A stretch of DNA of 64,000 nucleotides from an uncultured cyanobacterium. Lineage in GTDB: Bacteria > Cyanobacteriota > Cyanobacteriia > Pseudanabaenales > Pseudanabaenaceae. The notes below the pieces were generated by a model that saw nothing but the letters and a program-made list of their open reading frames with translations, did not search any database and was not told the origin of the DNA. Positions 44,743-56,813 of the stretch are shown here, piece after piece (within the stretch, counting starts at the first letter, position 1; the number at the start of each line of letters is the position of its first letter). The stretch spans positions 3,616,001 through 3,680,000 of the forward strand of contig OY969811.1 in assembly GCA_963703315.1 (NCBI GenBank), written 5' to 3'. The position numbers were made by a program, and so were the translations under genes.

Positions 44743-47700
44743 TCAAGACATACTCTTTTCTTCTTGTCGCCATTCTTCTAACTTCTCCTCGGTAAATGGG
44801 GTTTTATCTTGGCTTAGATCATCTAGCCATCCTTTTTGTTCTGCGTAAGTATATTGCTCTGAATAATTTCTCTCTCTAATCGAGAGTATTACTTCAAGAT
44901 TCTCACGATAAATTTTTGAGAGGGAGATTTCGATTTCAGAAATTGCACCATTTTTATCCCCTGCAAGTACTTTTGCTATAGTTCTATTTTGGCGAAAAAT
45001 GAGATTGCTTGGTTCCAGAATAACGGTGTTATTGCAAGCGAAAATGACCTGACTTGCTGAGTTGTATAAACTGCCGTTCCAACAGAGTGTATTCCATGAA
45101 TCTGCTGAGATTTTAATATTTGGATTGCGCTTGATGGCTTCATCATAGGCAACTAAAGCAGCTTTGATATCGCCTTCTTTCGCTAAGCGTTCCCCTTTAG
45201 GGATGAAGTATGGATTGATTTCTGTTTGTAGATCGAGGGAAATACTGCTATCTAGTTTCTTGGCTTCTTGAAATAGTGATAGAGCAATTTCAGGTTTACC
45301 ACTCATGCCTTTAGTTCTTGCTTCAGCGATTAGGGCAGGAGCCGCAGCTTTTAGGATTTGTGGATCGCGACAAGTTGCTAGTTTTTGTCGTAAGTCTCGA
45401 TTTGTAGCAAGATAGTCTTGCAACCAATAGCACCCAAGCCCCTTCTGACGATCTAAGTCTAAACTCCATAATTTGAGTTTTTTGTCAGCGCTTCCAGTGG
45501 CAATCGTCTTGCCATTAGGACTAAAGGCTACGCTATTGATACCCCTGCTATGTCCTTTGAAAGTTTGGAGTTCTTTGCCTTCCAGATTCCACAATTTAAT
45601 AGTGTTGTCCCTACTACCAGAGGCAATCGTCCTGCCATCGGGACTAAAGGCTACGCTATTAACACTATTGCTATGCCCTTTAAAAGTTTGGAGTTCTTTG
45701 CCTTCCAGATTCCACAATTTAGTAGTGTTGTCAGAACTGCTAGAGGCGATAGTCTTACCATCGGGACTAAAGGCTGCGCTATTAACACTACTGCTATGCC
45801 CTTTGAAAGTTTTGAAAGTTTGGAGTTCTTTGCCTTCCAGATTCCACAATTTAATAGTGTTATCATCACTTCCAGAGGCAATCGTCCTGCCATCGGGACT
45901 AAAGGCTACGCTATTGACACTACTGCTATGTCCTTTGAAAGTTTGAAGTTCTTTGCCTTCCACATTCCACAATTTGACAGTGTTATCATCACTTCCAGAG
46001 GCAATCGTCTTGCCATCAGGACTAAAGACTACGCTATTGATACCCCTGCTATGTCCTTTGAAAGTTTGGAGTTCTTTGCCTTCCAGATTCCACAATTTGA
46101 CGGTGTTATCCCTACTGCCAGAGGCAATCGTCCTGCCATCGAGACTAAAGGCTACGCTATTAACACTATTGCTATGCCCTTTGAAAGTTTGAAGTTCTTT
46201 GCCTTCCACATTCCACAACTTAACAGTTCTGTCATAACTGACAGTTGCAATTGTCATGCCATCGGGACTAAAGACTATGCTATTGACACTAGAACTATGC
46301 CCTCTAAAAGATGGGATTTCTTTAACTTCGAGATTCCACAGTTTAACGGTTCTGTCAAAACTGCCAGTGGCGATCACCTTGGCATTGGGACTAAAGGCAA
46401 CACCCCAGACACCAGAACTATGTCCTTTGAAGATTTGGAGTTCTTTACCTTCCAGATTCCATAATTTAATAACTCCGTTCAAATCCCCAGTAACGATCGC
46501 TTTGCCATCGGGACTAAAGGCAATCCTCCAGATATCATTACTCTGCCCTTTGAAAATTTGGAGTTCTCTACCTTCTAGATTCCACAATTTGACCGTATTG
46601 TTTCCACCACTAGTGGCTATCACTTTGCCGTCAGGACTAAAGGCTAAACTATTGATACTAAGCCCTTTAAAAGTTTGGAGTTCTTTGCCTTCCAGATTCC
46701 ATAATTTAATAGTGTTGTCCCAACTACCAGAGGCGATAGTCTTGCCATCAGGACTAAAGGCTAGGCTATTGATACTATCGCTATGCCCTTTGAAAGTTTG
46801 GAGTTCTTTGCCTTCCAGATTCCACAGTTTAATAGTTTTGTCCCCACTACCAGAGGCGATAGTCTTACCATCGGGACTAAAGGCTACGCTCCATACAATA
46901 GCGCTATGCCCTTTGAAAGTTTGGAGTTCTTTGCCTTCCAGATTCCACAGTTTAATAGTTTTGTCCCCACTACCAGAGGCGATAGTCTTACCATCGGGAC
47001 TAAAGGCTACGCTCCATACAATAGCGCTATGCCCTTTGAAAGTTTGGAGTTCTTTGCCTTCCAGATTCCACAATTTAATAGTGTTGTCAGAACTGCTAGA
47101 GGCGATAGTCTTGCCATCGGGACTAAAAGCTATGCTTGTGACAATACCGTTATGACCAAGAAGTCGATTTTTCTCTTGCATAGCATAGATAACTTCTTGG
47201 ATGGAGGTAATTACACGGATCTTAGTATCAGGAGAGACGATCTTATTTTTTTGTAATCTCTCTCCAGTCTCTACTGCCTCAACTAACGCCTCAAGCTGAA
47301 GATCTCCATTCAGTAGCGATAGCATCTTGTAACTATCAGAAACAAATTGTGTGTCAACACTAGTTCTCAGAGCCATGAAACCCGCAATTCCCGCTCCAAC
47401 TGCCATCACACTAGCCACAATCCCCACCCCAACAGCCAACCGACTCCGCCCCCTTGCCCTAAACTTCGCCGCCTCTTCCTCCTTCACTGCCACACTCAGC
47501 CGATCCACAGTTTCCCTCAACGTCTCCTTAGTTTCCGCCAACTCCTGCTGCAACTTCGCCATCTCAGGCGCTTGCGACGCACGGATAAACTCCGCTAGAT
47601 AGTCATGCACCAACTGATACCTATCCAAAGGCGACTCAGGCACAAGCACCACCAAACCCGATCGCACAAAAATCTCCAACACCAAATCTAACACCGATGT

Positions 47701-50172
47701 ATCCCCCTGCATCTCAGTCAGCAAATCATGTAAATCCTTCTCTAACTCCACACGAGTCTTTAACGGACGAGTCCCCCTCTCATCGGTCAACATAAACAGC
47801 AAAAACTTAGCCAATCGTTCATTCTCCTCCCCACAATCCACAATCACATCATTCAAATAGCGCTCCACCAATATCGCCTTCGGATTCGCACCCAACAGGC
47901 GATATTGCTCCAAAGTCTTAATTCCCTCCTGCTGTAACTGCGCTCCCACCACCTGAAGCTCAATCGGACGCACTTCACCTAGCTCATCCTTAAGATCATC
48001 AGCGATCGCCCCAATCAACTCAGGCTCCAAATAAAATCGCGATTTCTGAGTAAGGGTCTGAATCAGCGACTTAGCCGCCTTGACCTTGAGGTTCCCCACC
48101 CGATATAACACATTCTTACTGAGAATATCTTGATCGATCGCTGCCATGCTTTCAATCTGATTGCACTCCAGCAAATAATGCAAATAGTCCTCCCGCAACG
48201 ACAAAACTACCTTCAGCGAAGATAGATTTTGCGAATCATTTAGCAAACTTCCAATAAACTCAAAAAAGCGGCGACGCTCAGTAGGTTGATTGTAATAAAC
48301 AAAAAAGAACTCCTCAAACTGATCGAAAATTAAAACTAAACGCAAGTTTTGTGATTCTTTTTCCCTAAGTTTAGAGATGATGCTCTCACCCCCAGCCGCT
48401 CTCCCAGAGGGCGAGGGGAGTAAAGAGTCTTGCTCCCCCTCTCCCAATGGGAGAGGGGGCTGGGGGGTGAGGGTCTTGATCGCCTTCTCCAACTCCTCTT
48501 CCCAATTCGTATATACCCGCAAGGTGATCGCACAAACATCCCTACCCTCAAACGATGTATGCTCCAACTGCGGAATTAATCCTGCATTCACCAACGAACT
48601 CTTACCCACACCAGACTTGCCATACAACACAATCAACTTATAACTCGGCTTAGCAATGCGCGTAATCAACTCATCAAGATCCTGCTTGCGTCCCGAAGCC
48701 TCAATTTCAGTTGCCACATCAGTTTGCGATTTACCGACCGACTTCTTGCCCTGCAAGCGACCCGCTCCGATAAAGGCACGATAGCCATACTGTTGCTCGA
48801 TCGCATACTGTTCCTGCTTAGTGACATAGGCTTCGAGATATTGCTTTTGTGTGGTGTAAAGCGATCGCAATTCCTGCAAAACCGCAATATAAACCTGTGG
48901 ATGTCCCGTATCTCCTAACTCTTTGGCTTCAAGAAGCAATCGCAATCCCTCTTGAGCATTTCCAAGATTAATTTCTGCTTGAGCAAGCATTACTAAATAT
49001 AAATTACGCCATTCTTGATTGGTTTCTGGAGCTTGACTCAAAAATGAAATAGCAAGATTTGATTCAGTTCTAGCAACTTCCCATTGTTGCTTTTGAATTG
49101 CAATTTCGGCTAAATATCGATGATCTAAGACAAGATAATGTGGATTTTGTAACTCTTGATGTAAAGGTACTGCTTTTTGGATAATTGCCTCAATCGCTTC
49201 CCAATCAGACATTCGCTTCGCAATCACAACCAGACGCATAATTACATTTGCCATGAGATCGCGGCGATGTGCTTTTTCAAAAATATCCATCGCATTTTGA
49301 AAAGCCGATCGCGCTACTTCCCAATTAGGAGTTCGATATTTTTCAGCATCAGTAATTTGATAATTTAATTGTCCTATTTGATTGTGCAACAGACCACTAC
49401 GTTCGAGATCACCAAGCTGCTGCCAATACTCTAAACTTGCTTGCAAATATTGCAGAGCCTTTTCAGGTGAATTATTGGGCGGTAATGTGTCTAAACCGCG
49501 AATAAAGTTAAGATTAGCTTGCAATTTTGGCTCAAGATTCAAACCGCGATCGCCTAAATCCTTGAGCGCAGTCTCCAACTCTGAACATAGAATCGAACCA
49601 AGTTGATGAATTTGTCCTAACTTTTTGAAAAATGGAACCTCACTAGGCGCAAGTACATGACTAAATAGAGCTTCACTGCCATCATGGAGAGAAGTAAGTA
49701 ACTCATCAGTGTCAATGGAAAACTCCAGCGTCGTCGTCCAACTCTCAAAGTCAGGTGCAGTGCGGATAATTCGTTTATGAGTACTATCCGAAATCCACCA
49801 CACAATTGGATAGGGGCAGTGATTGCGAAACATCTCGCGATTGAGATTGATATCCAAAAGTGCAGCGTGCAGATCCTCTAGCTCTTCTAGTCCTACTATC
49901 GACAATGCTGCGGGAGTCTCTGACGATACTTGGGAAATTATGTAGTTATATAAATCTTTTTGCGATCGCGGTAACTTTATTTCACGGATTGGTTGTGGAT
50001 GGATTTCTTTGAGACGAATAATGAGGCGATCGCGCAAATTCTGATAATTACAACGTGCTAATAGTAGCTTAAACTCACCCTCATACAAATCTAGAGCCGA
50101 CGAAAGCTCTTGCAAAGCGTCTTCATTCTCAGGTGAGATATTTGCCGAGGCGAAATTAGATACGTCGCTCAT
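44743..50172 (-). CDS. STAND (nSTAND1-like) NTPase with TPRs, one TM helix, 14 WD40 repeats and C-terminal TPRs
   Basis: Walker A GKSGVGKSS; Walker B LIFDQFEEFF; RPIELQ; 14 WD40 units. Confidence 0.9.
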   Translation of the reverse strand: MSDVSNFASANISPENEDALQELSSALDLYEGEFKLLLARCNYQNLRDRLIIRLKEIHPQPIREIKLPRSQKDLYNYIISQVSSETPAALSIVGLEELEDLHAALLDINLNREMFRNHCPYPIVWWISDSTHKRIIRTAPDFESWTTTLEFSIDTDELLTSLHDGSEALFSHVLAPSEVPFFKKLGQIHQLGSILCSELETALKDLGDRGLNLEPKLQANLNFIRGLDTLPPNNSPEKALQYLQASLEYWQQLGDLERSGLLHNQIGQLNYQITDAEKYRTPNWEVARSAFQNAMDIFEKAHRRDLMANVIMRLVVIAKRMSDWEAIEAIIQKAVPLHQELQNPHYLVLDHRYLAEIAIQKQQWEVARTESNLAISFLSQAPETNQEWRNLYLVMLAQAEINLGNAQEGLRLLLEAKELGDTGHPQVYIAVLQELRSLYTTQKQYLEAYVTKQEQYAIEQQYGYRAFIGAGRLQGKKSVGKSQTDVATEIEASGRKQDLDELITRIAKPSYKLIVLYGKSGVGKSSLVNAGLIPQLEHTSFEGRDVCAITLRVYTNWEEELEKAIKTLTPQPPLPLGEGEQDSLLPSPSGRAAGGESIISKLREKESQNLRLVLIFDQFEEFFFVYYNQPTERRRFFEFIGSLLNDSQNLSSLKVVLSLREDYLHYLLECNQIESMAAIDQDILSKNVLYRVGNLKVKAAKSLIQTLTQKSRFYLEPELIGAIADDLKDELGEVRPIELQVVGAQLQQEGIKTLEQYRLLGANPKAILVERYLNDVIVDCGEENERLAKFLLFMLTDERGTRPLKTRVELEKDLHDLLTEMQGDTSVLDLVLEIFVRSGLVVLVPESPLDRYQLVHDYLAEFIRASQAPEMAKLQQELAETKETLRETVDRLSVAVKEEEAAKFRARGRSRLAVGVGIVASVMAVGAGIAGFMALRTSVDTQFVSDSYKMLSLLNGDLQLEALVEAVETGERLQKNKIVSPDTKIRVITSIQEVIYAMQEKNRLLGHNGIVTSIAFSPDGKTIASSSSDNTIKLWNLEGKELQTFKGHSAIVWSVAFSPDGKTIASGSGDKTIKLWNLEGKELQTFKGHSAIVWSVAFSPDGKTIASGSGDKTIKLWNLEGKELQTFKGHSDSINSLAFSPDGKTIASGSWDNTIKLWNLEGKELQTFKGLSINSLAFSPDGKVIATSGGNNTVKLWNLEGRELQIFKGQSNDIWRIAFSPDGKAIVTGDLNGVIKLWNLEGKELQIFKGHSSGVWGVAFSPNAKVIATGSFDRTVKLWNLEVKEIPSFRGHSSSVNSIVFSPDGMTIATVSYDRTVKLWNVEGKELQTFKGHSNSVNSVAFSLDGRTIASGSRDNTVKLWNLEGKELQTFKGHSRGINSVVFSPDGKTIASGSDDNTVKLWNVEGKELQTFKGHSSSVNSVAFSPDGRTIASGSDDNTIKLWNLEGKELQTFKTFKGHSSSVNSAAFSPDGKTIASSSSDNTTKLWNLEGKELQTFKGHSNSVNSVAFSPDGRTIASGSRDNTIKLWNLEGKELQTFKGHSRGINSVAFSPNGKTIATGSADKKLKLWSLDLDRQKGLGCYWLQDYLATNRDLRQKLATCRDPQILKAAAPALIAEARTKGMSGKPEIALSLFQEAKKLDSSISLDLQTEINPYFIPKGERLAKEGDIKAALVAYDEAIKRNPNIKISADSWNTLCWNGSLYNSASQVIFACNNTVILEPSNLIFRQNRTIAKVLAGDKNGAISEIEISLSKIYRENLEVILSIRERNYSEQYTYAEQKGWLDDLSQDKTPFTEEKLEEWRQEEKSMS
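45465..47165 (-). repeat. About 123-bp WD40-encoding tandem repeats, 14 units
   Basis: Near-identical DNA units; perfect 123-bp periodicity over 46779-47072. Confidence 0.95.
48383..48474. repeat. GC-rich palindromic element read in frame within the STAND gene
   Basis: CTCACCCCCAGCC...GGCTGGGGGGTGAG arms; internal CCCCCTCTCCCA-A-TGGGAGAGGGGG hairpin. Confidence 0.8.
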
Positions 50173-52235: not shown

Positions 52236-52859
52236 ATGGTTCAGGCGATCGCGGCAAAGGATGTAACCATAAGAGAATTAAAGCAAAATTTTGGGCTGCA
52301 AATGTCTGAAGATCCTGCTTTTTTTACTGAGTGGTCAGAAAATCTTGTGGGCTTGAGTGGTGAAGATAAACATCTTTTGGATCGTGTGAAGTCTAATTTT
52401 CTGGAATTGATGGAAGATCCACCAATGTTAGAAAATACAGTAAAGATGGTTGTACTTGCACCATTATTGGATCTTGCTGGTTTCTATCACAAACCATTTC
52501 GGATCGAAACAGAAACAAGTGTCTCTTTAGAAATGCAGGATGAGGGGACGATAATTCGTGGTCGGATTGATGTATTGGTGTTAAAAAATCGGCTGTGGTT
52601 ATTAGTGATTGGATCAAAACGCAGTGATTTTGCAGTAACAAGGGCAATTCCGCAAGCGTTGGCTTATATGTTGAGTAATACGGAAACAGTGGAACCGACG
52701 TTTGGCATGATTACCAATGGGAATGAGTTTTTATTTTTGAAGTCTTTTCAACAAGAGTATGCAAATTCGCGGCTGTTTTCGCTGGTGAATCCCACCAATG
52801 AACTGTATGGTGTATTGCAGGTGCTAAAGCATTTAGGAGCAAAAATTAGCGGACTTTAA
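52236..52859 (+). CDS. Restriction-endonuclease-like PD-(D/E)XK protein (HsdR N-terminal-like)
   Basis: GRIDVLV..LVIGSKR, PQALAYM, ITNG. Confidence 0.75.
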   Translation: MVQAIAAKDVTIRELKQNFGLQMSEDPAFFTEWSENLVGLSGEDKHLLDRVKSNFLELMEDPPMLENTVKMVVLAPLLDLAGFYHKPFRIETETSVSLEMQDEGTIIRGRIDVLVLKNRLWLLVIGSKRSDFAVTRAIPQALAYMLSNTETVEPTFGMITNGNEFLFLKSFQQEYANSRLFSLVNPTNELYGVLQVLKHLGAKISGL

Positions 52860-52921
52860 GCAGATTAAGATTTGTCTATATGAATCAAGGCATCATAGCG
52901 ATCGCTTGATTATTTTTTTAT

Positions 52922-52951
52922 TTGACATAGTATTAATATTGATACTAGAAT
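52922..52951 (+). promoter_or_regulatory. hicAB promoter with palindromic operator
   Basis: TTGACA-18 nt-TAGAAT; 20-bp near-perfect palindrome TAGTATTAATATTGATACTA (52928-52947). Confidence 0.7.
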
Positions 52952-52969
52952 CAGACTAAAATATAGTAT

Positions 52970-53224
52970 ATGGCACAAATAGAAAAAATTGTTGCTCAGC
53001 TAAAGAGGAGTCCTCAAAATGTCAACTTTACTGATTTAGTAAAAGTTTGTAATCATTATTTTGGAGAGCCTCGCCAGCAAGGAACAAGTCACTGTATCTA
53101 TAAAACACCTTGGCAAGGAGATCCTCGCGTTAACATTCAAGAAAAGAACGGAAAAGCAAAAGTTTATCAAGTTAAACAGGTTTTAGCGGCAATTGAAAAA
53201 TTTGAGGGAATGAAAGATGGTTAA
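52970..53224 (+). CDS. hicA: HicA-like toxin
   Basis: FGEPRQQGTSH, KAKVYQVKQV. Confidence 0.85.
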   Translation: MAQIEKIVAQLKRSPQNVNFTDLVKVCNHYFGEPRQQGTSHCIYKTPWQGDPRVNIQEKNGKAKVYQVKQVLAAIEKFEGMKDG

Positions 53225-53543
53225 CTACGAACACTATAGCTACAAGCTTACTTGGTCAGTTGAAGATCAAGAATTTGCAGGATTATGTGCAGAGTTTCCA
53301 AGTCTGTCCTATCTCCATGAAGATCGTTCTGCGGCGCTAGAAGGTATTACAAACTTGATAAAAGATGTAGTAGCTGATATGGAAGCAAATGGAGAGAAAG
53401 TGCCAGAACCGATAGCAGAGAAAACTTACAGTGGTAAGCTTCAGATTCGGATTCCTCCCTCTCTTCATCGTAGGTTAGCGATGGAAGCCGCCGAAGAAAA
53501 TGTTAGTTTAAATCGTTATATGAGTCAGAAGCTTGCAGGTTGA
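53217..53543 (+). CDS. hicB: HicB-family antitoxin
   Basis: CAEFPSLS; YSGKLQIRIPPSLHRRLAMEA..VSLN RHH domain. Confidence 0.88.
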   Translation: MVNYEHYSYKLTWSVEDQEFAGLCAEFPSLSYLHEDRSAALEGITNLIKDVVADMEANGEKVPEPIAEKTYSGKLQIRIPPSLHRRLAMEAAEENVSLNRYMSQKLAG

Positions 53544-53929
53544 AGTTTATTGATAATGCCTTTGTGAATAAGAGTCTAATTTATCGCTGGACAGATGTTT
53601 TAAAAAACATCGAAAAGTCCCTAGATGGCTTCTGTAATGGTTTCCTGCATCCCCGTTCTGAGTCGCCGTTGCAAGTGGTCGCGCCAATCAATGCAGAACC
53701 TACCGCTTTAATTCCATCTAATGCTGCGGTGATTCCTGCGGTGACAATTATTGCTAATGCTTTAAGAGTATTAGCAATAATTGCGATAGTTAATGACACC
53801 TAGTCTATCAAAAACAGAGGATTTCGATAAAAGCAGATGACTTGTATAAATCCTCTGTTTTTATTAGGATATGTCTGGTAAAGTATTTATTTTTCTTTTT
53901 CTTGGGAACATATCAGTATCGTGAATCTC

Positions 53930-54805
53930 ATGACAACATATCAACTTTTCCAAAAACTACTAATAGGTTCTGGAATAATCCTGTTAACACTATACATAGG
54001 CGCTTGTATATTTCTGTTTCTACGACAGAGACAACTAATTTTTAAACCGACCTATAACATTCTAGAAACACCTTTAAAATATAATCTTAAATATGAAGAG
54101 GTTTGGATTCCTCTTAAGGATAGGGATAATTTACAAGATAAATTACATGGGTGGTTTCTTCCATCCGAAAAAGATAATCTAGAATTAGGAACTATCTTAT
54201 ATCTTCATGGATCTGGTACAAATATTAGCAACTCTATTTATCTCCGAGATGTTGTGCAACTCAGAAAAATAGGATTTTCTGTCTTTATATTTGATTATCG
54301 AGGTTATGGTCAAAGTGTGGGAGATTTTCCGTCTGAACTGAGTGTTTATGAGGATGCTGAGACCGCTTTAAGATATTTAATCGAAAAAAGAGAAATTCCT
54401 CGCACAAAGATTTATTTGTTTGGTGTTTCATTGGGAGGAGCAGTTGCGATTGATTTAGCTATTAAAGAGAAAGGCATAGGAGGTTTGATTGTAGTCAGTT
54501 CTTTCACTTCTATGTTGGAAGAAATACTTTATAGAGGTTATAGGATGTTCCCAATTGAACTAATTCTAAACCAAAAGTTTGACTCTATTAATAAGATTGC
54601 ATCATTGACAACACCTATTTTAATTATTCATGGAACTTCTGACAAATCTAATCCAGCTAGTATGAGTCAAAAACTCTACAATGCAGCTCCTAATCGCAAG
54701 CAACTTCTCTTAATTCCAGATTTTGGACATGACAATATATCAGATATGATTGCAAGCACTCAGTTTAGAGATGGAATAAATAAATACATCAATGAAGCTA
54801 AATAA
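53930..54805 (+). CDS. Membrane-anchored alpha/beta hydrolase
   Basis: N-terminal TM; LHG, DYRGYG, GVSLGG, IHGTSD, GHD; AT-rich. Confidence 0.88.
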   Translation: MTTYQLFQKLLIGSGIILLTLYIGACIFLFLRQRQLIFKPTYNILETPLKYNLKYEEVWIPLKDRDNLQDKLHGWFLPSEKDNLELGTILYLHGSGTNISNSIYLRDVVQLRKIGFSVFIFDYRGYGQSVGDFPSELSVYEDAETALRYLIEKREIPRTKIYLFGVSLGGAVAIDLAIKEKGIGGLIVVSSFTSMLEEILYRGYRMFPIELILNQKFDSINKIASLTTPILIIHGTSDKSNPASMSQKLYNAAPNRKQLLLIPDFGHDNISDMIASTQFRDGINKYINEAK

Positions 54806-54870: not shown

Positions 54871-54937
54871 GTGATCGCATTCTGGAGTGATTGATTGGGC
54901 GATCGCGTTTTTTGTGAATGATTGGTGAGGTGATCTG
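54871..54937. repeat. HIP1-anchored tandem repeat cluster 1 (3 octamers)
   Basis: GTGATCGC 54871, GCGATCGC 54899, GTGATCTG 54930; G/T-rich linkers. Confidence 0.8.
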
Positions 54938-54940
54938 ACT

Positions 54941-55198
54941 CTAATAAATTTCCCTGCGATGCCCTACCCTAGCAATGAAGATCAACTGATTTTCTATATC
55001 AAATTCATAAATGACTCGATAATCTCCTACTCTCAACTTATAAAATCCAGACCACTGACCAGTCAATGGTAGTGGAGAAATCTTTTCAAAATTAATGCTT
55101 AACCATTGGATTTTCTTGAGAATCCGTACTCGCGTATCCTGAGAAATTTTATCTAAATCATCTATAGACTCTAGTTCAAAACTTACTGAATAAGCCAT
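54941..55198 (-). CDS. relE: RelE/ParE-family toxin
   Basis: PLTGQWSGFYKLRVGDYRVIY..VGHRREIY. Confidence 0.92.
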   Translation of the reverse strand: MAYSVSFELESIDDLDKISQDTRVRILKKIQWLSINFEKISPLPLTGQWSGFYKLRVGDYRVIYEFDIENQLIFIARVGHRREIY

Positions 55199-55414
55199 TT
55201 ATTGATCTATTCCATATCTTTTGTATACTTCTGATGCTGGAATAGTAGATCTTCCCTCCACCCGTTTTTTTCGTATGTTTAGCAAACTTTGCATGAATAA
55301 TTCTTTGATTTCTTTTCCCTGATCAGGATCGCCAAAGTATTCATCCAAACGTTCATCCACAGTATTACGGATTAAAGTTTGTAGTTGCTCTACAGTCAAG
55401 TCTTTTACTTGCAT
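55199..55414 (-). CDS. Antitoxin
   Basis: 71 aa, abuts toxin; MQVKDLTVEQLQTLIR..FGDPDQG. Confidence 0.8.
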   Translation of the reverse strand: MQVKDLTVEQLQTLIRNTVDERLDEYFGDPDQGKEIKELFMQSLLNIRKKRVEGRSTIPASEVYKRYGIDQ

Positions 55415-55476
55415 AGTTTCTACTAACGATGAAATATATGGGTGATTATAGCAATTTTTAGATCCTGAATAGGCAG

Positions 55477-55593
55477 GGGATCGCGTTTTGTGTTAATTGA
55501 TTGGGCGATCGTGTTTTGGTGAGTGGTTGGGCGATTGTGCTTTTTGATGGGATGATTGGGCGATCGCGTTTTGGGCGAGGGTTGGGCGATCGC
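55477..55593. repeat. HIP1-anchored tandem repeat cluster 2 (5 octamers)
   Basis: Octamers at 55477, 55505, 55531, 55560, 55586. Confidence 0.9.
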
Positions 55594-55596
55594 TAT

Positions 55597-55884
55597 TTAA
55601 TAAACCTCATCATGACTCCCAATATCAACCAAAAAAATCACCATCTCCAACAACTCTTCATCTTCAGAAAATCTAAAAACAATCCTACAATCATAAGCAA
55701 CAGAACAAGACCATAATCCAGCTAAATTTCCTCCCAACTTATGAGACTTTAATGAAGGCGTAAACGGATCATCTCCCAACAGCCTTAAAGCTTTTACAAT
55801 TAGCTCAGTTAATTGTGGATTTTTCTTTGTAATTTTTTTGAAAGAGCGTTTAAATCCGTTACTCCAAACAACTTGCATCATCAT
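55597..55884 (-). CDS. YafQ/RelE-superfamily mRNA interferase toxin
   Basis: PSLKSHKLGGNLAGLWSCSVAYDCRIVF...DIGSHDEVY. Confidence 0.88.
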   Translation of the reverse strand: MMMQVVWSNGFKRSFKKITKKNPQLTELIVKALRLLGDDPFTPSLKSHKLGGNLAGLWSCSVAYDCRIVFRFSEDEELLEMVIFLVDIGSHDEVY

Positions 55885-56089
55885 CCCCTAATAAATCAGC
55901 AATCAAATCATCAACACTTCCTCTTTTTGCTGTTCCATCTTTAAATGATTTCATCACCTCCTCAGAATTAGCCAAAATCTCCTGCCGCCGACTCTCAATA
56001 CGTCGCTTACGGATTAGCTCAAACAAATAATCCTGATCTTCTATTGATAAACCCTCAATAGAATCAATGATTTGCTGAAAGATCATCAT
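55859..56089 (-). CDS. Antitoxin
   Basis: 76 aa overlapping toxin start; LSIEDQDYL..RRIESRRQEI..GSVDDL. Confidence 0.8.
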   Translation of the reverse strand: MMIFQQIIDSIEGLSIEDQDYLFELIRKRRIESRRQEILANSEEVMKSFKDGTAKRGSVDDLIADLLGDDDASCLE

Positions 56090-56175
56090 AAGACTTCCTT
56101 AACTATTACAAAATTTCTTAACAACTATCTTCTGTACATTTCTAATTCTAACTCATTAACATTGAACGACTCTAG

Positions 56176-56210
56176 GCGATCGCGTTTTTGGTGAGTGGTT
56201 GGGCGATCGC
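56176..56210. repeat. HIP1-anchored tandem repeat cluster 3 (2 octamers)
   Basis: GCGATCGC-GTTTTTGGTGAGTGGTTGG-GCGATCGC. Confidence 0.9.
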
Positions 56211-56212
56211 CT

Positions 56213-56357
56213 TTAAGGGAAAAACTTGTAAATATCTTTACGGTGCAAAAACCTTACAAAAATTACTTCATTTTCAAAAATTTCTATCCCTACAAAGATT
56301 ACGATCCTTGACTAACTTCAAGTCCTTCTCAAATCTAGACTCAACCCTAACATTCAT
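56213..56357 (-). pseudogene. relE: RelE toxin pseudogene with internal deletion and frameshift
   Basis: MNVRVESRFEKDLKLVKDRNL joined out of frame to VGIEIFENEVIFVRFLHRKDIYKFFP*; ATGA-coupled to the antitoxin. Confidence 0.8.
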
Positions 56358-56581
56358 GCAACATTACCATCTAGAAGCGCAAAGATATTATCTTCAGGAA
56401 CAAATTCATTTTTTCTACCCTCAGCGATCGCATTTCCCAAACCAAACTCTTCTAAAGCATCTTGAAATATTTCCGCAAAAAGCTCCTTTCTAGTCTTAAT
56501 CAAATCAATTAAGATTTCAGTGAGCATTTCTCTTGTCTTCTCATCGTTAAGGAGTATTTGAATATTCAAACTCTCATTCAT
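56354..56581 (-). CDS. Antitoxin
   Basis: 75 aa; DALEEFGLGNAIAEGRKNEFV motif; coupled to the relE remnant. Confidence 0.8.
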   Translation of the reverse strand: MNESLNIQILLNDEKTREMLTEILIDLIKTRKELFAEIFQDALEEFGLGNAIAEGRKNEFVPEDNIFALLDGNVA

Positions 56582-56628
56582 AATCCAAGTTTATATAATT
56601 CTAGCTTAATAACATCAAACAGCTTTTG

Positions 56629-56718
56629 GCGATCGCGTTTTTGTGGTGATTGATTGGGCGATCATGTTTTGGTGAGTGGTTGGGCGATCGCGTTTTGGGT
56701 GATTGCTTGGGCGATCGC
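56629..56718. repeat. HIP1-anchored tandem repeat cluster 4 (4 octamers)
   Basis: Octamers at 56629, 56658, 56684, 56711. Confidence 0.9.
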
Positions 56719-56768
56719 ACTTTGCATTTATATACAATTACATCTGATAATTACTGAGTTTAGAAAAT

Positions 56769-56797
56769 AAAAAAGCCACACAAAGTGCGGCTTTTTT
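56769..56797 (-). terminator. ftsH terminator
   Basis: AAAAAAGCCACAC-AAA-GTGCGGCTTTTTT just after the ftsH stop. Confidence 0.65.
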
Positions 56798-56813
56798 ATA
56801 TGTATTGAAAATA

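Follow-up and report, generated by a model that had tools for sequence, protein, structure and literature searches.

This analysis concerns an array of toxin-antitoxin (TA) gene pairs at positions 54871 to 56718 of a 64,000-nucleotide stretch of contig OY969811.1 (assembly GCA_963703315.1; the whole stretch is hereafter called the window) from an uncultured cyanobacterium of the Pseudanabaenaceae. The pairs are separated and flanked by clusters of short tandem units built on the octamer HIP1, and a sequence-only reading of the window had proposed that these repeats act as joints for the gain, loss and shuffling of TA modules, in the manner of an integron. According to the available portions of the literature, what HIP1 does has remained an open question over three decades, excision between HIP1 sites has been described at smtB, and HIP1 increases transformation in a way that depends on methylation (PMC13756078). 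HIP1 has also been tied to site-specific recombination (PMC4390886), HIP1 and the element SDR5 are treated likewise in a further paper (PMC5861425), and the scarcity of HIP1 has been taken as a sign of foreign genes in a study whose subject, in the part available, is not arrays (PMC3025956).

Octamers were called, unless stated otherwise, with at most two mismatches to HIP1, and they lie at 54871 and 54899; at 55477, 55505, 55531, 55560 and 55586; at 56176 and 56203; and at 56629, 56658, 56684 and 56711. They form four joint clusters, at 54871..54937, 55477..55593 (five octamers, four linkers), 56176..56210 (a single unit with two perfect HIP1 sites) and 56629..56718 (four octamers, three linkers; the left end of the array). 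The clusters of 3, 5, 2 and 4 octamers described earlier are recovered, except that the third octamer of cluster 1 (54930-54937) has three mismatches. Between the clusters lie three TA pairs, all on the minus strand, each assigned to a cassette family. Family F2 comprises a RelE/ParE toxin of 85 aa (54941..55198; PF05016, E 4.2e-12; TIGR02385 above cut-off) and a predicted antitoxin of 71 aa (55199..55414), which has no Pfam, PHROG or NCBIfam match and is assigned with the support of a predicted complex. Family F3 comprises a YafQ-like RelE toxin of 95 aa (55597..55884; PF15738, E 3.3e-11; TIGR02385) and a probable antitoxin of 76 aa (55859..56089), assigned from size and position, with no family match and an Atlas lead to 'HigA' at 0.90 that serves as a lead only. 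Family F1 comprises a broken RelE/ParE toxin (56213..56357), whose intact relative matches PF05016, and an intact RelB-like antitoxin of 75 aa (56354..56581; PF25734, E 6.4e-13), the sole antitoxin family match among the three pairs; four small open reading frames gave zero matches in PHROGs. The pairs are not close homologues of one another, in agreement with the description of three different pairs, and all three toxins belong to the RelE/ParE superfamily, the third being broken.

The arrangement at the array, a RelE/ParE toxin gene downstream of a small antitoxin gene, resembles type II TA systems of the RelE/ParE superfamily (RelBE, DinJ-YafQ type) in its two-gene operons and in the Pfam and NCBIfam matches of its toxins; it differs in that two window antitoxins belong to no named family and the third toxin is broken. 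For the F2 toxin and its 71-aa partner, the predicted complex scored 0.86 against 0.01 for the best control, with contacts agreeing at 87% or more and a partner pLDDT of at least 79; the mark applied to such scores is reached by 116 of 157 solved pairs and 2 of 215 mismatched pairs. This prediction supports binding of the toxin by the 71-aa protein, while the score may reflect likeness to solved RelBE complexes. The F1 toxin carries an internal deletion of 122 bp at 56293/56294, away from any HIP1 site, which shifts the frame; because the cassette measures 418 bp in the window and 530-569 bp in 11 copies of relatives, the window toxin is regarded as a frameshifted remnant. Contigs of sequencing run X1, which may be the source sample, showed 0 differences from the window across three clusters and the toxin deletion, and joints seen in runs X2-X4 lie inside repeats of other strains and were not counted as evidence.

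The toxin stops lie 3, 3 and 2 nt from the nearest octamer, as had been claimed, and the -10-like hexamers, all on the minus strand, lie 26 (TATAAT, 55445..55450), 25 (TAGAAT, 56145..56150) and 25 nt (TAGAAT, 56598..56603) from the upstream cluster. The F2 hexamer is found in 8/8 copies, at 22 nt from the octamer in 5 copies and 26 nt in the window, and the 25-nt spacing holds in 5/6 copies of F3 and 12/12 copies of F1. F3 and F1 have homologous leaders (window 56143-56190 and 56596-56643; 81% over 48 nt), which explains their identical spacing. A sigma70 -35/-10 scan returned 4 hits, all on the plus strand, against 7.0 expected; since no pair occurs on the minus strand, the hexamers claimed earlier hold as conserved motifs and are candidate promoters at most.

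With 8231 exact sites in its 4.57 Mb, this genome is rich in HIP1, and 25 of 192 adjacent pairs of exact sites 24-34 bp apart have a linker of at least 80% G+T on one strand, against an expectation of 3.3 ± 1.7 with a maximum of 8 in 200 draws; close HIP1 pairs with skewed linkers are thus far above chance. The units, mostly 26-28 bp, consist of the octamer plus a strand-skewed, low-complexity linker; 241 of 256 unit sequences are unique, linkers stand about 7 edits apart in 27 bp, and clusters contain 1 to 13 units, or about 30-360 bp. Over 351 sites, the joint consensus on the A/C strand is AAAAC-R-CGATCGC-CCAA, or in short form AAAN-R-CGATCGC-C(C/T), in which position 1 is relaxed (G 62%, A 35%) and positions 2-8 are kept at 88-99%; other lineages have the A-tract and octamer in common and a different linker. 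Each unit folds as an 8-bp HIP1 stem with an open loop. A reading of the repeats as an RNA family or CRISPR repeat was set aside, as the array had no Rfam match at E 0.1; cas genes were not searched for.

The joints are polar. Relative to the A/C-rich linker strand, cassettes kept their orientation in 150/150, 9/9 and 321/321 comparisons (overlapping sets), and the genes within cassettes point either way, so that polarity is independent of gene direction. Across 84 families the first base of the cassette is C in 67% and G in 1%, and the last base is G in 15%, a polarity resembling that of linker ends; CGATCG is kept in 76 of 86 octamers directly after a cassette and in 51 of 85 before the next one. 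The fixed geometry proposed for the array applies within each cassette family, where the spacing of -10 and stop is constant: the F1 stop stands at +2 in 11 of 12 copies, the exception being the broken window copy. Between families the stop lies about 1-30 nt and the -10 about 14-47 nt from the octamer, a few distances being inflated by missed degenerate units, and this spread rules out a universal geometry for all cassettes. A near-HIP1 site lies no more than 5 nt from the stop in only 59 of 3153 long open reading frames. As a separate observation, array polarity in the genome of the window (designated G000; relatives and loci are designated by other G and L numbers) follows two arcs, with the A/C strand on plus from 483 kb to 3588 kb and on minus from 3671 kb round to 445 kb, with one exception; a replichore rule was rejected, as GC skew is flat and dnaA lies mid-arc.

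When the window array was compared with 47 congeneric genomes, matches were obtained in 43, the strong ones being single-cassette blocks whose ends fall at clusters, and a second array of G000 matches relatives in the same single-cassette manner. Twenty loci were fetched because they carry one window cassette, a selection by cassette content; 18 of them, in 18 genomes, are arrays with the linker type of the window, and the remaining two carry F2 inside arrays built with other linkers. These arrays contain about 20 cassette families (in the family list, F17 is a false cassette and F5 merges two), each of which begins and ends at the same base beside an octamer and forms a module of about 420-820 bp with its own leader and two small genes. 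Content and order vary among relatives, as the sequence-only reading had anticipated: 47 of 48 neighbour pairs in 19 arrays are distinct, compared with 43.2 ± 1.7 after shuffling. In G049, for example, the locus shares with the window an alpha/beta hydrolase gene and the first cluster, homology stops within that cluster at 54911, and the order continues F7-F4-F1 where the window has F2-F3-F1.

Breakpoints were examined in 23 cassette pairs at least 96% identical, in which the alignment reaches the octamer upstream in 18/23 and downstream in 21/23. The unit just past the octamer is already different in 16/18 cases upstream and 15/21 downstream, the first downstream unit is common to both members in 6/21 pairs, and more than one unit is never shared; a difference in the first unit after the octamer is seen even between cassettes with identities of 98.6% and 99.5%. 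The shared prefix of the first unshared unit measured 2.6 against 2.2 in controls downstream and 4.6 against 3.4 upstream, with no excess at lower cassette identity, and F2 and F1 retain their ends in arrays with other linker types. The idea that units travel along with cassettes was set aside as weak at most on this comparison of units. With relatives differing in content and order and homology ending at octamers, the repeats behave as the joints they had been proposed to be, and we are highly confident that cassettes are exchanged at them.

Several individual copies deserve separate mention. G016 (L065) holds two diverged F1 alleles in tandem, 92% and 95% identical to the window copy, and in G053 (L044) an unrelated sequence interrupts the F1 toxin. 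Copies of F18, part of F14, and F12 occur outside arrays at G000 3064083-3064847 and 4288715-4289290, where single HIP1 sites still flank F12, and F18 and F14 look fused by deletion.

Cassettes are 91-96% identical to those of the window irrespective of whether the host ftsH is 94% or 80% identical, with one copy in another array type at 88.7%. For instance, G003, with an ftsH of 79.7% identity, has an F2 that is 95.2% identical, F3 is 93.8% identical in G019 (ftsH 84.8%), and a DUF433/DUF5615 cassette of Cronbergia is 89.3% identical to that of this genome over 645 of 650 nt. Judged by these identities, the cassettes cross both species and order boundaries.

The ftsH gene, whose terminator-like inverted repeat (56767..56799, minus strand) lies next to the array, was considered as a conserved anchor, an idea that did not survive comparison: it is the left neighbour in this genome only, is a neighbour in 0 of 18 relative arrays, and its downstream DNA differed among the loci listed (20 fetched). 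The right neighbour in 16 of 18 relative arrays is instead one or two variable genes followed by a GMC oxidoreductase gene and the cox operon, and the left neighbour nearly always differs, four arrays sharing an MFS-like gene. Of the GMC gene the window retains only a remnant, 133 bp from the 3' end (53577..53709, plus strand); the window joins to a proS region resembling that of G014, and on these grounds it is regarded as a rearranged copy of the GMC/cox site. In the variable slot between anchor and array lies an alpha/beta hydrolase gene (53921..54805, plus strand), which fills the same slot in G049. The 3' end of the anchor is present in 32 of 41 relatives. Of 16 further loci picked by the anchor alone, 7 ended at contig ends and were left uncounted, and the 9 readable ones comprised 6 arrays, 2 bare clusters of 6-7 units and 1 locus with nothing, so that occupancy of the site ranges from 0 to about 9 cassettes. 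Identity of the GMC anchor among loci is 90.6-94.3%, although ftsH differs by up to 20%, and outer neighbours vary; on this sequence comparison the GMC gene and cox operon are probably a mobile respiratory island, of which G000 retains just 133 bp.

Other features of the neighbourhood include an HSDR_N-like gene and a HicAB-type pair (52236..53543, plus strand), whose families are 81-85% identical in relatives and occur there as array cassettes F11 and F10; in the window this region has no clusters and one HIP1 at 52898. In almost every genome the slot that separates the GMC gene from the first cluster (L051-L070) is filled by other larger genes, several of them defence-like, including a type II methyltransferase with a restriction enzyme, PDC-S39/DUF4209, HNH/DUF3427, PIN_8 and DUF4238, and 4 of 16 slot proteins have PADLOC hits. 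Elsewhere in the window, an 1809-aa WD40 protein contains 13.5 copies of a 123-bp repeat (44743-50172), and a perfect 158-bp tandem duplication occupies 702-1017.

At the level of the genome, 16 loci of G000 have at least two units, against 1, 1 and 4 for control compositions, and nearly all of them surround small TA-type genes. Toxin genes of the ParE, BrnT and PIN types lie within 450 bp of a cluster in 11 of 50 cases (5/22, 6/9 and 0/19, respectively), compared with 0.8% of random positions, which bears out the proposed tie between multi-unit clusters and TA genes; on these counts, the arrays are TA-specific yet house a minority of the TA genes. The unit pattern occurs in 42/42 genomes of the genus; the reversed-pattern controls of the genus and phylum scans lack HIP1 and are therefore weak. 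A strict three-octamer pattern marks 59 loci in the species collection, about half of them in Pseudanabaena and the remainder in Microcystis, Dolichospermum, Sphaerospermopsis, Cronbergia, Nostoc, Calothrix and others, and it marks 7 of 301 phylum genomes; since it misses G000 itself, these counts are a lower bound only. Among 26 loci from outside Pseudanabaena, many contain small gene pairs that lie between clusters, several lack them, and some clusters flank no TA pair, such as those of L084, L099, L110, L119 and L128.

The cassette census comprises 84 families from 191 copies. A Pfam run on 111 of 140 cluster representatives, leaving out apparent shadow frames or duplicates, identified the cargo mostly as ParE/RelE, YoeB/Phd, BrnT/A, HicA/B, PIN, DUF433/DUF5615, Fic, GNAT, PemK, DUF4160/DUF2442, Uma2, DUF29 and HNH, with about a third of the representatives lacking a match. 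Joint units were also seen on small contigs of a near-complete genome (G044:C3:18677 and G044:C4:80965), which are possibly plasmids and hence a second transfer route. Two distant TA homologues were found on plasmids, the one examined lacking clusters; a phage search gave no match to array content; and a metagenome scan with the hydrolase gene returned 16 loci, of which one, at 71% identity, has no clusters.

A recombinase accompanying the arrays was sought, and none linked to any array was found. In G000, IntI was not found (TIGR02249 best 32-38 bits against a cut-off of 265), nor were a serine resolvase or a reverse transcriptase, and the transposases, seven IS110 and one Y1, do not lie at an array. 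The attC motif (RYYYAAC ... GTTRRRY) had no match on either strand between 54800 and 56800 in a motif search, as distinct from a covariance model. The conserved -10-like leaders of the cassettes, and the fact that these point in either direction, argue against an attI site with a common Pc promoter driving promoterless cassettes, although no attI model was run. The only intact tyrosine recombinase of G000 is XerC/D-like, scores 38 bits on TIGR02249, lies 1.9 Mb from the window array and is single-copy in 40 of 41 relatives; an XerC-like gene flanks an array solely in G047, and this core gene was rejected as an array-dedicated enzyme, as it is not array-linked. The genus-core XerC-like recombinase (L144:4115-5635; G000 1754114-1755637) carries an extra degenerate copy of the catalytic domain at its N-terminus. 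Separately, a TetR domain fused to a degenerate tyrosine-recombinase-like domain (L139:3089-4333; G000 4367588-4368832) lies directly upstream of another HIP1 array, beside a desaturase-like gene; the integrase-like hit at 4367693 was dismissed as a dedicated enzyme, being below cut-off, a TetR fusion and, by eye, without catalytic residues. The frames of ComEC and DprA are open in this genome, and from these two genes host competence for transformation is inferred.

Among known systems, reported HIP1-junction events likewise have junctions at HIP1, and the extended form GGCGATCGCC (PMC4390886) resembles the cassette-end junction seen here; in the available parts of the two papers they are single events between scattered sites, with no tandem HIP1 units, cassette arrays or TA cargo described and the word 'tandem' absent from both (PMC4390886, PMC5861425). 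Integrons and CALINs, as far as the source is available, share tandem gene-sized cassettes, short separating sites, variable order and number, a pool moving between species, and TA cargo that often has its own promoter and stops near the site (PMC4889954). As in integrons, cassettes with fixed ends differ here from genome to genome in how many there are and in what order, and they move horizontally. The arrays differ in lacking IntI and the attC core motif, in their sites of 1-13 direct HIP1 units of about 27 bp, in a cargo almost only of TA or small nuclease genes pointing both directions, and in their many arrays per genome, so that the term integron-like stands for variable cassettes with fixed ends and as an analogy only. 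TA cassettes are also carried by the superintegrons of Vibrio.

The NIME arrays of Neisseria (dRS3-RS), as described in the available part of PMC1797815, are alike in that a short, conserved palindromic site and short, varied spacers take turns in dynamic arrays, which occupy conserved loci of a transformable host. They have been proposed to promote exchange or insertion of flanked genes via homologous or site-specific recombination, and there they are reported in Neisseria only. The present arrays are likewise dynamic site-plus-spacer arrays at conserved loci, the two competence genes pointing to a similar host. Compared with that account, the site here is the HIP1 octamer (R-CGATCGC-C), unrelated to the 20-bp dRS3; the spacers are 16-27 nt, strand-skewed and polar; and whole TA modules are gained, lost or reordered rather than surface-gene alleles replaced, with no phage recombinase candidate. 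SDR5, known from a second-hand description, is a very short element (about 21 nt) linked to HIP1 in cyanobacteria, which according to that description inserts between HIP1 bases 3 and 4 and has been reported from Nostocaceae alone. Whole octamers bound the present units, which lack an internal hairpin and occur in 42/42 genomes of a non-Nostocacean genus. In Dolichospermum L081, hairpin-like inserts of about 24 nt split HIP1 after the third base inside clusters of A/C units, as described for SDR5. No published description of such arrays was found in the literature searched, which was covered mostly at abstract level, with most subscription papers outside coverage; the arrays are real and, apparently, an undescribed variant of gene-cassette array, and there is a fair chance that they form a class of their own.

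The reading that we favour, with a confidence only slightly better than even, is that of an exchangeable TA cassette array whose ends are fixed at HIP1 octamers and which would be built by host machinery crossing over at the polar HIP1 site on DNA probably acquired by natural transformation. It draws on the breakpoints at octamers, on the exchange between linker types and on the earlier reports of HIP1-linked excision, recombination and methylation-dependent transformation. Incoming cassette DNA would be supplied by natural transformation, and crossover would take place at the octamer rather than along the linkers, assisted by a trans-acting host factor, with either the core XerC-like recombinase or RecA/DprA strand exchange stimulated by methyl-HIP1 as candidate. 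Excision would occur between two joints, optionally through a circular intermediate, and a cassette may be retained through toxin addiction or anti-phage benefit, as TA biology suggests, until the toxin decays, after which cassette loss would leave a longer or bare cluster. The broken F1 toxin of the window fits such a cycle of decay and loss, and the bare clusters at empty sites are compatible with the earlier suggestion that extra units are scars of lost cassettes.

A number of observations weigh against this reading. Besides the missing array-linked recombinase, no gain or loss event was caught among genomes that represent one per species, and neither a circle nor an empty allele of this strain appears in the contigs. 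Cassette ends are defined by octamers, so that their precision is partly built in, and end polarity may be leftover linker; the linkers, being of low complexity and nearly all unique, could through fast turnover mimic octamer-precise breakpoints. Only 167 of 351 octamers are perfect, the claim of transfer rests on identity comparisons rather than trees, 39 of the 50 toxin genes of G000 lie outside arrays, with no PIN gene inside one (0/19), and the uniform identity of the anchor indicates that the operon or larger segments move too.

Some of these points are accommodated by ordinary RecA-dependent recombination during transformation, in which whole low-complexity clusters would serve as short imperfect homology arms, HIP1 would be merely the most conserved island and slippage or gene conversion would renew the units quickly. 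Such a process accounts for the fixed polarity, requires no new enzyme, agrees with the failure to find an array-linked one and with the movement of the anchor operon between species, and is one of two models proposed for the NIME arrays in the available text (PMC1797815). The variation of clusters from 1 to 13 units, near-duplicate neighbouring units (8 of 176 within 2 edits), the occasional sharing of the first downstream unit, and the possibility that low-complexity units mutate fast beside cassette ends that are octamer-defined here also speak for it. We nevertheless hold it, though the main rival, less likely than not, since nearly identical cassettes (98.6% and 99.5%) differ in the first unit past the octamer, the prefix shared by the first unshared units is little or no longer than in controls, and cassettes keep their ends across arrays and orders with different linkers.

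That last behaviour, the same cassette with the same ends in different array types and orders, also speaks against the proposal that selfish SDR-like mini-repeats gather at HIP1 in dispensable DNA while TA pairs arrive by island turnover and HIP1-HIP1 deletions tidy their ends, so that the repeats would mark losses rather than gains. Excision from HIP1 to HIP1 is documented and SDR5 targets HIP1, as far as the available sources go, and some clusters flank no TA pair while TA families also exist without clusters; yet deletion from an ancestral array would preserve order, whereas 47 of 48 adjacencies differ, two diverged F1 alleles stand side by side in L065, and the units leave HIP1 intact, unlike SDR5. 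We consider this account improbable. Still less credible, and in our estimate very improbable, is that the clusters are kept chiefly as transcription insulators between TA operons, each a HIP1-HIP1 hairpin with a T run on the G/T strand, with shuffling as a side effect. The 8-bp HIP1 stem with open loop in each unit, the position of 2 of 3 terminator-like hits inside clusters and the A-tract preceding the octamer in all lineages examined would suit an insulator, but loops of 18-21 nt are atypical of terminators, the 3 terminator-like hits compare with 1.5 ± 1.4 by chance, for the three window cassettes the T run lies on the wrong strand, and polarity is independent of gene direction.

Extended beyond the genus, the favoured reading of HIP1-bounded cassette exchange becomes a phylum-wide, integrase-free system, in which a host enzyme would use methylated HIP1, set in a polar context (A-tract, octamer, C), as its recombination site, the tandem units of about 27 bp would be empty cassettes and landing pads, and a pool of TA and defence genes would circulate across orders; we put this forward tentatively, with somewhat less than even confidence. 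If true, integrons would be joined by a second class of cassette array, and HIP1 would have a direct function. Irrespective of this extension, the arrays are likely an undescribed, integrase-free way of swapping gene cassettes, which would give HIP1 a testable job, and they supply a substrate that recurs in nature, in which the polar site is defined, the ends of cassettes are fixed and empty alleles exist, so that the recombination idea can be tested on it. They may also provide a sequence handle for mining unidentified TA or anti-phage genes and possibly a minimal insertion site for cyanobacterial engineering. For cyanobacteria themselves, bloom-formers included, such arrays would offer a route to collect TA and defence genes without integrons.

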